From an uncultured Candidatus Saccharibacteria bacterium (GTDB lineage Bacteria; Patescibacteriota; Minisyncoccia; Phycocordibacterales; UBA1550), in NCBI GenBank assembly GCA_964457625.1, contig CAYWES010000001.1, positions 17,725-81,724 of the forward strand: 64,000 bases of DNA, read 5' to 3'. Both the position numbers and the translations under genes were made by a program. Below are positions 2,477-18,296 of this stretch, piece after piece; within the stretch, counting starts at the first letter, position 1, and the number at the start of each line of letters is the position of its first letter. The notes under the pieces are model-generated. The model was not told the DNA's origin. It searched no databases and was given only the letters and a program-made list of their open reading frames with translations.

Positions 2477-3640
2477 TCAGTTCTTTTTGTTTTGATTAAC
2501 CAAAATTTCGATTTGGTCTGCCAAAGCATTTTGTCCTTGTTTGATTTGGTCTACGAGGGCAATCTGTCCTTTGGGGATTTCTTTATTATCCCCGAGAACA
2601 TAGACGGCCTTTCCTTGTACACCGGCAACTCGAGCAACTTCCTCTCGGATTGCAAGCTCGGCAACATCGGCGTACTTGTGGAGTTGCTCCATCTTGAGCC
2701 GAGTTGCTTCTGCGGAAGCTTTTCCAACTACTTCAATGGCTTGCGCACGACGCTCTTCATAAGCGAGGTGAGCATCACCTTCCTTTGTTTTCTCGAGGAT
2801 CTTTGCTTCACCATCGCGCTCAGCTCTTGCCTTTGCGGTAAGAGAGTCTTTTACTTCCTTGCTTCCACCAGTGAGTTCAACCCTCACGATGTTGGCATTT
2901 ACGACTTTGACCCCGAGTCTGCCGATGAAACCATCTCCCAATTCATTCCCATTGAACTCTTCTCCATTTTCGTCGGTGATGATAGTTTCAACGGTATCAT
3001 TAGGGTCTTCCTTGTTTATAAGTACAAGATCCTCGAAGTCCTTACCTTTTACGAAAGGATTCATGAGAGCCTTGATCTCCGCTTCCAAGCGGAGAAACCA
3101 GTCTTTGGTTTTGAAGAGGGCAATCCAAGGGAATATAATCCTTACATGAATCACGATGTCAATCGTGACCTCCAGGTTATCCCTTGTTTCAAAGTCGTCG
3201 CAGCGGACAACGTACGCAACTTCCTTTAAGAAAAAGAAGTTTGTAGGTTCCTTCCGTCGGACATACTCCGTTTTTATGCTTTCCCCTTCCTTTGTATCTC
3301 TCATTTCCGCCCAGGTAAAGGAGTCTTCCCTGATTTTGAAGGGGGGAAGCCCAACCCAGTGCACTCCCATGACTTCACGCTGAAAATCAAGATACGCACC
3401 TTGAGCCTCGGCTGACTCGGGAACTACTTGCCATTCTCCATGGATTTGCTTTATTGCGAATTTTGCGGACCCGCAAACAAATCCTTTGAATGCATTTTCC
3501 CGGACAATTACTTGCCCGGTATTTTCTTTCGGAGTAGTGAATAGCCATTCTCTCCTCGCGAGGAGGAGTGGGCCGTATACAAACAATAGTCCTGATAAGA
3601 CCATTGCTATAAGAGTTACAACAATAAGAGTAATAAGCAT
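2477..3640 (-). CDS. SPFH/band-7 (flotillin/stomatin-like) membrane protein
   Basis: Start moved to MLITLIVV (ATG 3640-3638) with GGAGG 7 nt upstream. N-terminal TM helix. TRDNLEVTIDIVIHVRI-type SPFH core. C-terminal Ala/Glu-rich coiled region (AKARAERDGEAKILE…EERRAQAIEV). Confidence 0.6.
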   Translation of the reverse strand: MLITLIVVTLIAMVLSGLLFVYGPLLLARREWLFTTPKENTGQVIVRENAFKGFVCGSAKFAIKQIHGEWQVVPESAEAQGAYLDFQREVMGVHWVGLPPFKIREDSFTWAEMRDTKEGESIKTEYVRRKEPTNFFFLKEVAYVVRCDDFETRDNLEVTIDIVIHVRIIFPWIALFKTKDWFLRLEAEIKALMNPFVKGKDFEDLVLINKEDPNDTVETIITDENGEEFNGNELGDGFIGRLGVKVVNANIVRVELTGGSKEVKDSLTAKARAERDGEAKILEKTKEGDAHLAYEERRAQAIEVVGKASAEATRLKMEQLHKYADVAELAIREEVARVAGVQGKAVYVLGDNKEIPKGQIALVDQIKQGQNALADQIEILVNQNKKN

Positions 3641-14916: not shown

Positions 14917-15000
14917 GCGTAGGTGGCGGAGTGGTCAATCGCAATTGACTGTAAATCAATCGCCCTTTGGGCTTCGAAGGTTCGAATCCTTCCCTACGCA
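14917..15000 (+). tRNA. tRNA-Tyr(GTA), type II
   Basis: GCGTAGG-TG-GCGGAGTGGTCAATCGC-A-ATTGA-CTGTAAA-TCAAT-long variable arm-GAAGG-TTCGAAT-CCTTC-CCTACGC-A. Confidence 0.9.
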
Positions 15001-15012
15001 CAATTCAAAATA

Positions 15013-15037
15013 GCGCCCATCAGGGCGCATATTTTGT
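15013..15037 (+). terminator. small hairpin plus T-run after tRNA-Tyr
   Basis: GCGCCC-atca-GGGCGC followed by ATATTTTGTTT. Confidence 0.45.
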
Positions 15038-15040
15038 TTG

Positions 15041-15260
15041 TGCGTAGGGAGGAAGCCGTTGGTACGGCTTCCGTAAGGATTCGAACGGCGGAATGTGAAA
15101 TTTTTAGCAAAAAATTTCCATGAGCCGGTGCCTAGACCAAAAGTGAGTGGCGACGAACTTTTGAGTCGAAGGAGAATCCTTCCCCCAACAGACACCACTT
15201 TCCCCAAAACACCCTCCTACCCACGCTTTTCGCTTGAGCTCGCCTCGTTGCTTTTTTTTT
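15041..15260 (+). ncRNA. candidate structured RNA / decayed tRNA-Tyr-derived element (unclassified)
   Basis: Perfect hairpins at 15051-15072, 15097-15118 (extendable to 15086-15127), 15138-15163 and 15168-15182. The 5' GCGTAGGGAGG can pair with CCTCCTACCCACGC at 15213-15226. Ends in T9 (15252-15260). Segments match the acceptor and T-arm of the adjacent tRNA-Tyr. Confidence 0.3.
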
Positions 15261-15283
15261 GAGGATATAGTAGGATAGGCGAC

Positions 15284-15442
15284 ATGTCACAAGATCAACT
15301 TATCAAACTCGTCTGCAAGGACTGCAAGCGCGTGAACTATTGGTCGCGCAAGAACAAGAAGCTCGTTGAGCGCAAAATCGAGCTCGACAAGTTCTGCAAG
15401 TGGTGCAAGAAGCACACGACGCACAAGGAAGGAAAGAAATAA
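15284..15442 (+). CDS. rpmG: 50S ribosomal protein L33 (zinc-ribbon type)
   Basis: Not in the ORF track because it is under 60 aa. Translation: MSQDQLIKLVCKDCKRVNYWSRKNKKLVERKIELDKFCKWCKKHTTHKEGKK. CxxC…CxxC plus the KNKK…L-L-KFC pattern typical of L33. Confidence 0.85.
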   Translation: MSQDQLIKLVCKDCKRVNYWSRKNKKLVERKIELDKFCKWCKKHTTHKEGKK

Positions 15443-15444
15443 TA

Positions 15445-15470
15445 AAAATACCCCCAAGTGGGGGTATTTT
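15445..15470 (+). terminator. Rho-independent terminator after rpmG
   Basis: AAAATACCCCC-aagt-GGGGGTATTTT. Confidence 0.65.
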
Positions 15471-15478
15471 GCTATTAT
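15470..15478 (+). promoter_or_regulatory. extended -10 box TGcTATTAT, 6 nt before the alr ATG (leaderless candidate)
   Basis: TGCTATTAT at 15470-15478; ATG at 15485. Confidence 0.4.
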
Positions 15479-15484
15479 ATATCC

Positions 15485-16618
15485 ATGAATCACGACCTTC
15501 GAAAAGGACTGCGCACTTGGGTGGAAATAGACACCCGGGCAATCGCCAAAAACTATACCGCTTTTAGGAATCATATTCCTCCATCTGTGCGCCTGTGTGG
15601 TGTGGTGAAATCAAACGCGTATGGGCATGGTCTCGTGCAATTCGCGCAGGAGCTTGAAAAGCTCGGCGCTGATATGCTCGCGGTTGATTCGGTGGTGGAG
15701 GCGCTCACCCTTCGCCGTGAAGGGGTACGCACTCCGATTCTTGTCCTCGGATATACGCTTCCCGATATGTATGAAAAGGTTCTTGAAAAAAACATTCATC
15801 TCACGATTTCCAGCAAGGAGAGTTTGGACGAACTTTTCTCGAGAGGGTACCATACGCGCATCCCCATTCATATTAAAGTTGATACCGGCATGCATCGGCA
15901 AGGGTTTCTGGAGGACGAGAGGGAAGTGCTCATGGATTTTCTAGAAAAGAAAGGTTTTTTGATATCGGGGCTCTATACGCATTTTGCAAAATCAAAAGAT
16001 TTCAATGATAGGACCTTTACGGAGTCCAGCATTGAAGTATTTTTGCGCTGGAGAGAGGATTTTAAAAAGAGGGGAAAGGTCGTGATTGCGCACGCGGACG
16101 CCACGGGAGGATTGCTTGTACATCCTGAAGCGCACTTTGATATGGTGCGTATCGGTATCGGTCTCTATGGTATGCCCGCTGCGGATACGTTGGCTACTTT
16201 TCACGAAGAAACCATGCCTCTTCACCCCGTGCTTACCTGGAAGACAATTGTCTCGGAGATAAAAGAAATCCCCGAGGGGTCTTCAATAGGATACGACGGC
16301 ACACATGTGACGAAGCGCCCCACAAAGATGATGGTATGCCCGATAGGGTATTGGCATGGGTATCCTCGCGCGCTTTCAAACAACGCTGAAGTGCTTGTGC
16401 GCGGCAAGCGTGCACCTGTCCTCGGGCGAGTCTCAATGGATATGATAGTCGTAGATGGTACGGATATTCCCGGTGTGCGTGTGAGCGATGAAGTGGTTTT
16501 GGTCGGCGCGCAGGAAGGGGAGGAAATATCGGCAACAGAGCTTGCGCATCGTGCGGGGACGAGCGAGTACGAGCTCCTCACGCGCTTGAATCCTCTGATG
16601 AGAAAGATCTATCGGTAA
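15485..16618 (+). CDS. alr: alanine racemase
   Basis: VVKSNAYGHGL (PLP lysine motif), and IGYWHGYPR plus VLGRVSMDM near the C-terminus. Start moved to ATG 15485, because the GTG track start lies in the rpmG terminator. Confidence 0.9.
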   Translation: MNHDLRKGLRTWVEIDTRAIAKNYTAFRNHIPPSVRLCGVVKSNAYGHGLVQFAQELEKLGADMLAVDSVVEALTLRREGVRTPILVLGYTLPDMYEKVLEKNIHLTISSKESLDELFSRGYHTRIPIHIKVDTGMHRQGFLEDEREVLMDFLEKKGFLISGLYTHFAKSKDFNDRTFTESSIEVFLRWREDFKKRGKVVIAHADATGGLLVHPEAHFDMVRIGIGLYGMPAADTLATFHEETMPLHPVLTWKTIVSEIKEIPEGSSIGYDGTHVTKRPTKMMVCPIGYWHGYPRALSNNAEVLVRGKRAPVLGRVSMDMIVVDGTDIPGVRVSDEVVLVGAQEGEEISATELAHRAGTSEYELLTRLNPLMRKIYR

Positions 16619-16680: not shown

Positions 16681-16754
16681 GGGCCTATAGTTCAGTGGTA
16701 GAATAGCGGTCTCCAAAACCGTTGACCGAGGTTCGAGTCCTCGTGGGCCCGCCA
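16681..16754 (+). tRNA. tRNA-Trp(CCA), CCA encoded
   Basis: GGGCCTA-TA-GTTCAGTGGTAGAAT…loop CTCCAAA…CGAGG-TTCGAGT-CCTCG-TGGGCCC-GCCA. Confidence 0.9.
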
Positions 16755-17525: not shown

Positions 17526-18296
17526 ATGGTCAAAAATCTCGCTACAACAAATATGAATACCCTAGGCACACCTCAGCTTCATGAGAAGCCGAAGCACAAG
17601 CTCTCACCATCAACAATAGAGAAGCTTCAATACTATGTTTACACACTTTCCGACCCTCGGACTAATAAAGTTTTCTACGTTGGCAAAGGAAAAGGAAATC
17701 GCATAAATCACCACTTGCTTGGTGCACTTGAAGAGAAAACCAAAGAAACGGAGAAAATAAAAACTATCAGAGATATCCAAAAAGCGGGGCTTGAAGTAAG
17801 CCTCGATATTATTCGTCATGGCTTAACCGAAAAAGAAGCTTTTGAAGTAGAGAGTTCGATTATTGATGTCCTCGATATTAAATCTCTTACAAATCTTGTA
17901 TCCGGGCATCATTCATACTTAAGAGGGAAAAAGACACTTCGGGTTATTGAAATTGAATACCAAGCAAAGCCCGCAAACTTTGACGAACCAGTCGTCCTTA
18001 TCCGTATCAATCAGGAATTCAGGCACGATATGACTGTCGAAGAACTGTATACGGCGACACGAAAAGACTGGAAAGTCGGACAGCGAGTACATGACATCAG
18101 TATTGCTTGCGCCGTATATGCTGGAATTATTCGCGAAGTATATAGTGTCAAAGAATGGGTACCATCTCCCGGAGTTCCCGGACGGCATATGTTCAACGGA
18201 AAAATCGCAGAAGACAGAATTCGTAACAAGTACATCAACAAGTCCGTTGCTCATATCTGGAAGCAAGGAAGCCAAAATCCGATTAAGTATGTTTAA
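17526..18296 (+). CDS. GIY-YIG nuclease-superfamily protein with uncharacterised C-terminal domain
   Basis: YYVYTLSDPRTNKVFYVGKGKGNRINHH followed by EKEAFEVESSIID (GIY-YIG core with Arg and Glu). The C-terminal 130 aa are unassigned. ATG 17553 is an alternative start. Confidence 0.65.
   Translation: MVKNLATTNMNTLGTPQLHEKPKHKLSPSTIEKLQYYVYTLSDPRTNKVFYVGKGKGNRINHHLLGALEEKTKETEKIKTIRDIQKAGLEVSLDIIRHGLTEKEAFEVESSIIDVLDIKSLTNLVSGHHSYLRGKKTLRVIEIEYQAKPANFDEPVVLIRINQEFRHDMTVEELYTATRKDWKVGQRVHDISIACAVYAGIIREVYSVKEWVPSPGVPGRHMFNGKIAEDRIRNKYINKSVAHIWKQGSQNPIKYV

Follow-up and report, generated by a model that had tools for sequence, protein, structure and literature searches.

A three-way-junction element flanked by tRNA-tail copies behind tRNA-Tyr, a putative insertion cassette of uncultured Parcubacteria-type bacteria

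The locus and its folded core

The 64-kb stretch of contig CAYWES010000001.1 analyzed here (the window) contains a 220-nt spacer (15041-15260) between a tRNA-Tyr gene and rpmG, and this spacer holds a structured element flanked by copies of the tRNA 3' end. The local gene order was ClpB, a UPF0259-like membrane open reading frame (ORF), tRNA-Tyr, the spacer, rpmG, alr and tRNA-Trp, and the coordinates of the features are collected in Table 1. A crude ORF cover of the window left gaps elsewhere that were comparable in size to the spacer or larger. An earlier note on this DNA had described the element as structured, unannotated, partly composed of tRNA-Tyr pieces and different from a canonical tRNA, and this description held, since ARAGORN and Rfam detected the real tRNA only. 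ARAGORN found no second tRNA and no transfer-messenger RNA (tmRNA) in the spacer, and the tRNA model (RF00005) gave no match within 15041-15260 even at E <= 10. A gathering-score search of the whole window with Rfam 15 returned 8 tRNAs and nothing else. Permissive searches (E <= 10) of the spacer region and the homologous elements of seven other loci yielded no credible family, only chance microRNA-type matches that could be attributed to the palindromes. In the spacer, tmRNA, 6S RNA, signal recognition particle RNA, RNase P RNA and ribosomal-protein leaders gave no credible match. The Intron_gpI and Intron_gpII models and the small self-cleaving ribozymes (hammerhead, twister, hatchet, pistol and others) had no match in the region or the seven other loci. 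A hammerhead also seemed unlikely on inspection by eye, because the CUGANGA...GAAA core was missing and the junction strands did not fit. The expectation that no known family would claim the element was thus borne out at both thresholds.

Table 1. Features of the tRNA-Tyr to alr region (window coordinates; R1 is the covariance model built from the type A cores described in the text)
Feature	Position	Strand	Remarks
tRNA-Tyr (GTA)	14917-15001	+	ARAGORN; Rfam tRNA 63.2 bits
Trailer and palindromic bidirectional intrinsic-terminator hairpin	15002-15040		Stem-loop 15013-15028; both strands carry terminator-like sites
Left arm, outer part (P0 5' strand)	15041-15050	+	0/8 mismatches to reverse complement of tRNA positions 66-73
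P-alpha	15051-15072	+	22-nt perfect hairpin splitting the left arm
Complete conserved core, P1-P2-P3	15075-15181	+	R1 match 120 bits, E = 2.8e-28; only match in the 64-kb window
P1	15075-82 with 15174-81	+	
P1 5' strand (AAGGAUUC)	15075-15082	+	Complement of tRNA T-stem 3' strand and T-loop
P2	15086-15127	+	Stem CGGC/GCCG, internal loop with conserved GGA/GAG, hairpin 15097-15118 with AGCA loop (minimum free energy fold)
P3	15131-15172	+	CCU/AGG, GAC/GUC and CAAAAGU/ACUUUUG stems, loop GAGUGGCGACGA (minimum free energy fold)
Right arm, inner part (P1 3' strand)	15174-15184	+	Direct copy of tRNA-Tyr positions 57-67 (GAATCCTTCCC)
CA-rich unpaired insertion between right-arm halves	15185-15212	+	28 nt; right-arm gap 33 nt
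Right arm, outer part	15213-15226	+	Decayed direct copy of acceptor 3' strand (CCTCCTAC-CCA-CGC)
Conserved rpmG promoter/5' block	15248-15283	+	Includes the T9 run; outside the element
rpmG	15284-15442		
alr (alanine racemase)	15458-16618		

The core of about 107 nt folded into a three-way junction of helices P1, P2 and P3, accompanied by two further helices, P0 and P-alpha. The segment 15073-15184 (112 nt) had a folding energy of -40.1 kcal/mol (z = -5.4), which none of 200 shuffled sequences equaled, and the full 220 nt gave z = -2.7. When the window copy and those of loci L070, L048 and L049 were folded singly, they adopted an identical junction with z values from -4.5 to -8.4, and the minimum free energy folds of additional copies had the same layout. 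The four perfect hairpins and the closing helix that the earlier note had proposed were all present at the positions given there. However, the hairpin at 15168-15182 is incompatible with P1, and P1 was formable in every homologue.

Covariation was examined in an alignment of 10 sequences made with MAFFT and not fitted to the structure. Paired cells amounted to 90.6%, compared with 66.3% in column shuffles. The covariation score was 0.664 against 0.226 for shuffled columns, a level reached by none of 500 shuffles, and it fell to 0.22 or less in a slid control with the partners shifted by 1-3 columns. Two-sided, compensatory changes were found in 27 of the 31 pairs of P2 and P3, comprising 14 of 16 pairs in helices 2-4 (P2) and 13 of 15 in helix 5 (P3). 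The covariation of P1 and P0 was discounted because both arms copy one tRNA. The unpaired junction and loop nucleotides were also conserved.

The strand could be assigned as well. The consensus pairs across 17 copies contained 22 G-U pairs versus 6 A-C mismatches on the plus strand, which is the tRNA sense, and this strand was more stable than its complement in all 20 copies compared, by a mean of 9.4 kcal/mol. Hence the element is most readily interpreted as an RNA of the tRNA strand. A minus-strand tRNA-like gene, with a shared terminator and an exact tRNA-type 3' end, was ruled out by the same asymmetry and folding energies. Compensatory changes that preserve the helices, together with a clear strand asymmetry, are generally expected of conserved structured RNAs, and both were observed here. 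We are highly confident that this is a real family selected for a three-way-junction fold, and the confidence extends to the strand.

Homologues and the tRNA-derived arms

Homologous loci were obtained through contigs encoding Alr homologues, and further loci through a metagenome pattern scan. The window Alr was 57-66% identical to proteins of metagenome-assembled genomes (MAGs) of the Parcubacteria or Yonathbacteria type. A GTDB genome scan with Alr found relatives at most 48% identical, none of them syntenic, and an exact-match look-up of the rpmG protein returned no record. Homologues of the element occurred in at least 20 other places. The first search with R1 gave 20 matches at E < 0.02, and later matches were added in L076-L079, whose common Alr protein (P0024) is labeled Candidatus Yonathbacteria by NCBI. 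With a single exception, all R1 matches followed a tRNA gene or a tRNA 3'-end-type trailer and shared its orientation. The exception, on the minus strand of L073 (5924-6030, 68 bits), was a further unit with its arms, or cassette, and these arms derive from a tRNA with the T-loop TTCAAGT beyond the locus end. Therefore, the family reaches at least a fifth tRNA gene type.

The order ClpB, tRNA-Tyr, intervening element, rpmG and alr recurred in several MAGs. Copies stood behind tRNA-Tyr in L048, L049, L070, L071, L072 (two copies), L044 and L076, and the element lay between tRNA-Tyr and rpmG in L048, L049, L071 and L072, the last with two tandem units. An element was likewise present in each of L076-L079. 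One full and one truncated unit occupied the same slot in L073, where tRNA-Tyr is absent, and L050 retained a vestige only. The element was missing upstream of rpmG in L044/45 and L046, and the Tyr-linked copy of L070, found in the pattern scan, did not adjoin rpmG. A scan for arms covering all 50 tRNAs in the fetched DNA located cassettes behind tRNA-Trp at eight loci, to which L076 is added. Cassettes also followed tRNA-Lys at five loci and tRNA-Arg(GCG) at three. The analogous element behind tRNA-Lys(UUU) in L053-L063 came from the pattern scan. Within the window, neither blastn-short nor R1 detected a further copy. The viral contigs scanned contained no type A or type B cores, and two 16-mer matches to the Lys/Arg type. 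Our literature searches recovered no prior description of a three-way-junction RNA flanked by tRNA tails. Related copies occurred in related uncultured bacteria of the Candidate Phyla Radiation (CPR)/Parcubacteria type, and the family is apparently undescribed.

The cassettes share a common layout, namely a terminator, then the tail of the preceding tRNA in inverted form, the core, and the tail once more in direct orientation. In the window, the last ~20 nt of tRNA-Tyr served as source for both arms. Positions ~54-74 and no more were copied, once inverted and once direct, and the ~90-nt interior showed no similarity to tRNA-Tyr. A repeat search revealed a palindrome of 28 nt (14991-15018 / 15023-15050), unnoticed in the earlier note, in which the tRNA 3' end, the trailer and the terminator stem are mirrored. 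It is centered on the terminator hairpin and links the tRNA 3' end to the left arm. The outer left arm complements the acceptor 3' strand and the discriminator. The earlier note had taken TGCGTAGGG at 15041 for a copy of the 5' acceptor, but it proved to be one arm of this palindrome and hence the complement of the 3' strand. The Trp-linked copies settle the point, since their left arm reads GGGCCCA, the Watson-Crick complement of the 3' strand, and the 5' strand of the tRNA itself reads GGGCCTA. A retroviral-type primer-binding site was ruled out, as the left arm complements the genomic trailer and not CCA.

The remaining pieces were recognized with mixed success. The inverted copy of the T-loop region proposed in the earlier note was exact (12 nt, 100%, 15075-15086, by repeat search), and the inner right arm was a direct copy of 11 nt at 100% in the same search, with 0/9 mismatches in the arm comparison. 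The segment CCTAC(CCA)CGC, read as a 3' acceptor copy, was indeed a decayed one, with 1/8 mismatches to the tRNA in its best 8-mer. In contrast, TCGAAGG, read as a copy of the T-arm, belongs to the conserved core end GAGUCGAAGGAGA, which was also present in Trp-linked copies whose tRNA T-stem differs. P0 is imperfect in the window, where 15041-15050 and 15213-15226 pair through GCGU/ACGC and GGG/CCC. The CA-rich insertion is unique to this copy, and other copies had 12-47 nt inserted there or none. The window copy is therefore a partly decayed member of the family, with an intact core, a perfect P1 and a P0 decayed through the CA-rich insertion.

The arms were specific to each tRNA. Most copies had 0-2 mismatches to the adjacent tRNA in both arms, the right arm being compared with tRNA positions 57-73. 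In the Trp cassettes, for example, the left arm reads GCGGGCCCA...CGAGGAATCGAA and the right arm GATTCCTCGTGGGCCCGC. The acceptor and T parts of the left arm were split by exactly 25 nt in 13 of 18 cassettes. This constant module, made of P-alpha and its linkers, was found in Tyr, Trp, Lys and Arg cassettes. The P-alpha loop was reverse-complemented between genomes, reading TTGGTA in the window (15051-15072) and TACCAA in L071 (2119-2138), with the stem kept, implying that DNA-level hairpin events occur at the cassette. A second unit in L076 (3130-3235) had a left arm and P-alpha without a core. At the junction of its arms the sequence is AAGGATTCGAATCCTG, a T-arm hairpin made symmetrical, and the unit is either a core-less cassette or the product of a precise core deletion.

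Two core types were found behind both tRNA-Tyr and tRNA-Trp. Type A follows the pattern CGAA-N-GNCGGA-hairpin-GAG-NCGG-UGCC-NAGAC-hairpin-GAGUCGARGGAGA, and type B has the signature GGGGUCG...ACUUAG...CUUAGUAAC. The two are homologous, since R1, built from type A, detected type B at E = 1e-9 to 1e-4. The Lys/Arg type scored marginally with R1 (E = 0.005-0.9), and had the same arm and P-alpha architecture and a three-way junction.

Several observations were made in the surroundings. The genes rpmG and alr are separated by a perfect bidirectional terminator of 11 bp (15445-15470). In L043, the closest relative by Alr identity (66%), a T-arm-like palindrome (GCGGGAGGATTCAAACCCCTCCCGC) was located upstream of rpmG at 95-125, where ARAGORN called no tRNA. 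Between alr and tRNA-Trp of L072, positions 3468-3612 matched bacterial large-subunit rRNA 2129-2212 weakly (30.8 bits, below gathering). A GIY-YIG (LEM-3-like) ORF lies near the window tRNA-Trp at 17526-18296, and in L070 a small GIY-YIG ORF (~3190-3400, minus strand) directly precedes the tRNA-Tyr that bears the cassette. Their proximity may be a coincidence.

Insertion-like behavior and competing explanations

The units behaved in several respects like insertions. Tandem or stacked units were seen in L072, L073, L049, L062/63, L058 and L076, and truncated units in L073, L070 and L076, and the unit of L050 was lost except for its vestige. Two tRNA-Arg genes of identical sequence differed in occupancy, the site being filled in L059 and empty in L057. 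Core identities, computed with the arms removed, were 93% between the Tyr and Trp sites of the same genome (L071). Between the Tyr sites of the window and L071 the cores were 90% identical, where Alr was 60%, rpmG 79% (nucleotide level) and tRNA-Tyr 86%. L071 and L048 have 87% identical Alr and an identical tRNA-Trp, and their cores shared only 69% at the Trp sites and 50% at the Tyr sites. Judged from these sequence comparisons, the core tree is in conflict with the host tree.

The tRNA 3' ends were also distinctive. None of the 22 cassette-bearing tRNA genes encodes CCA. In 21 of them N73 is followed by CA and then A, T or C, and the Trp gene of L072 continues with CTA. The window tRNA-Tyr belongs to this group, with A73 followed by CAA. 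CCA is encoded by the cassette-free Trp and Tyr genes of L046/47 and by the cassette-free tRNA-Trp of the window (16681-16754), downstream of which lie only a terminator and a minus-strand ORF. Five Trp cassettes retained GGGCCCGCCA, an apparently displaced GCCA end, in their right arm. Moreover, the terminator found directly after tRNA-Trp in L048, L049 and L071 sits past the right arm in L052. These patterns would be expected if an insert, carrying a substitute CCA-less end and a terminator of its own, had moved the original 3' end of the tRNA downstream to become the right arm. They follow the logic of integrase-type insertion in the T-loop, here with a unit of ~200 bp that holds no gene.

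Taken together, 15002-15226 is probably a single copy of a repeated cassette that was inserted at tRNA 3' ends, lacks protein genes and specifies a structured RNA. A unit consists of the palindromic terminator, the last ~20 nt of the tRNA in inverted orientation, usually split by the 22-nt hairpin, a core of ~90 nt and a direct copy of positions ~57-74. On the tRNA strand, the arms pair as P1, with P0 added where it is intact, and thereby close the three-way junction formed with P2 and P3. We are moderately confident of an insertion mechanism. The cassette may have entered, or been duplicated, through recombination in the T-loop/3' region of the tRNA, bringing a replacement CCA-less 3' end and a terminator and displacing the original 3' end downstream, where it would have become the right arm. 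Cores may later have been swapped between cassettes at different tRNAs. The RNA would be produced by read-through from the tRNA promoter, as no space is left for a dedicated promoter. The inverted arm could be a guide-like complement of the target, the result of palindrome-templated repair, or a requirement for closing P1 and P0. More speculatively, the family might be a protein-less, RNA-structured mobile cassette that homes to tRNA genes through the guide-like tail complement, rewrites the 3' end so that the encoded CCA is removed, and can be retargeted between tRNA species around one catalytic or protein-recruiting core. We regard this extended proposal as tentative and rather less likely to be right than wrong.

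Several points weigh against the insertion-cassette reading. No recombinase, transposase or reverse transcriptase was found in or beside the units among the flanking genes examined, and neither an excised form nor an exact pair of empty and filled sites was seen, so that mobility is inferred from patterns only. The window has one copy, and its seven other tRNAs carry no cassette. Part of the discordance between the trees could also have arisen from an ancestral array of several units through differential loss together with gene conversion, and the 90% core identity of the window and L071 is little above the 86% of their tRNA-Tyr genes. How the arms would be re-derived for a new tRNA species is left unexplained. 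The covariation of P1 and P0 is automatic, leaving P2 and P3 as the sole independent evidence of selection. A single-stranded DNA substrate that folds would equally account for the tolerance of G-T pairs on one strand. Finally, the promoter scan found none for the element, including on the plus strand inside the terminator.

A non-mobile RNA gene family that benefits the host is a possible but less probable explanation. Such a family would be tied to tRNA biology, kept by its tRNA and homogenized by palindrome gene conversion. It might act as a processing or decay module, or mimic the acceptor/T-helix of the cognate tRNA as a decoy or sensor. The strong structural selection and the conserved junction nucleotides fit this explanation, as do the arms that track the allele of the neighboring tRNA. 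In L048 the left arm is exact and the right arm retains an older allele. The element also persists in reduced genomes, with the same slot occupied across an Alr divergence of 57-87%. However, it is dispensable or absent at the same tRNA in L046, L050, L057 and at the window tRNA-Trp, different core types occupy the same slot of close relatives, and units are stacked or truncated. P0 additionally pairs the discriminator and position 74, so that no tRNA-like free 3' end is left. The earlier suggestion of a tRNA-derived regulatory RNA is plausible in a loose sense only, through the tRNA origin of the closing stem.

The fold might instead work as single-stranded DNA, as a recombination or transposition substrate like integron attC, CTX-phage attP or the ends of IS200/IS605 elements. 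We consider this unlikely. Structure was conserved above sequence, mispairs were tolerated on one strand only, and the insertion-like behavior would be accounted for. Both the flipped P-alpha loop and the long perfect palindromes point to processes at the level of DNA. Against this stand the conserved unpaired nucleotides of the junction and loops, a three-way junction with G-U pairs typical of RNA, and the constant co-orientation with tRNA transcription. In addition, the flanks examined showed neither an HUH transposase nor an integron integrase.

Two remaining explanations, which take up the tRNA duplicate and the rpmG leader of the earlier note, were very improbable. A decayed tandem duplicate of tRNA-Tyr would account for the tRNA-Tyr-identical pieces and for the lack of an intact second tRNA, but the copied part is confined to the last ~20 nt with one copy inverted, and the interior, unlike tRNA-Tyr, is 85-93% identical to cores behind tRNA-Trp elsewhere and covaries behind other tRNA species. 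Just as improbable was a cis-regulatory role as the leader of rpmG or, alternatively, a small RNA from the minus strand that shares the bidirectional terminator with tRNA-Tyr. The element does lie immediately upstream of rpmG, and a weak minus-strand promoter-like site is present at 15290-15262, but its hexamers are forced by the start-codon region of rpmG. The minus strand folded worse in 20/20 copies, with A-C mismatches opposite the plus-strand G-U pairs. The family tracks the upstream tRNA whichever gene follows, including unrelated genes at L070 and at the Trp, Lys and Arg loci, and rpmG also occurs without it in L044/45 and L046.

A conserved block also intervenes between the element and rpmG. 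The T9 run, which had been taken for the end of the element, lies in this block, TTGC[C/T]-T6-9-N5-GATATAGTAGGAT, which was present upstream of rpmG in L043, L048, L049, L050, L071, L072, L073 and L076. The block is located downstream of the element, is kept in L050 where the cassette is a vestige, and ends 5-12 nt ahead of the rpmG ATG in all relatives. The block is suggestive of an rpmG promoter whose leader is very short or missing.

Comparison with known systems

The element adds a covarying, conserved RNA fold to the CPR/Patescibacteria, a phylum whose non-coding repertoire is almost uncharted. If the insertion-cassette reading is true, the tRNA 3' ends of reduced genomes are repeatedly rewritten by tiny non-coding cassettes, and this would explain CCA-less alleles, long palindromic terminators and stray tRNA fragments that mislead annotation. 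Being compact, fixed at a defined tRNA position in all cases and equipped with arms that match its target, such an RNA is a candidate for a new guide- or ribozyme-based mechanism of recombination or processing. R1 allows the question to be addressed directly with complete genomes and metatranscriptomes.

The position in the tRNA 3' flank recalls the small RNAs of tRNA 3' external transcribed spacers, and the closing helix has the acceptor/T-arm stack sequence of a specific tRNA, like tRNA-like structures and minihelices. However, the cassette lies beyond the terminator, has no free NCCA and no T-loop, and its interior junction is unrelated to tRNA.

Self-contained structured RNAs associated with tRNA genes and lacking a homing endonuclease are known from the same phylum, namely the group I introns of Patescibacteria, which sit in the tRNA anticodon loop at position 35/36 (PMC13011429). 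In contrast to these, the cassette lies outside a mature, uninterrupted tRNA and gave no group I match. Group II introns were reported absent from Patescibacteria (PMC13011429).

A different likeness concerns the terminator. Class C bacterial group II introns insert just past intrinsic terminators, and the cassette resembles them as a structured RNA directly behind a terminator hairpin with sequence complementary to its flank. It differs in its core of ~107 nt, without domain V/VI, a reverse-transcriptase ORF or an Rfam group II match.

Miniature inverted-repeat transposable elements and the IS200/IS605-derived palindrome-associated transposable elements are likewise small, non-coding, hairpin-rich and multi-copy, and show presence/absence polymorphism. 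The inverted repeats of the cassette, however, are not constant and copy the local tRNA (Tyr, Trp, Lys or Arg), and the site is always a tRNA tail. The usual target-site duplication was not found, and the window held one copy.

Integrative elements and genomic islands at tRNA genes, together with the integrase-less cis-mobilizable elements, also target the segment from the T-loop to the 3' end of a tRNA gene. They leave the tRNA intact through a replacement 3' end carried by the insert, have a direct repeat of the tRNA 3' end at the far border, and may accrete in tandem at one tRNA. In most copies of the cassette, too, a direct repeat of the tRNA 3' segment bounds the unit and the tRNA is intact. 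No integrase gene was present in the units, and recombinase domains were not seen in the flanking genes examined. In contrast to those elements, the cassette measures only ~200 bp without an ORF, adds an inverted copy of the tail, and holds a covarying RNA-type junction whose core is the same at four tRNA species.

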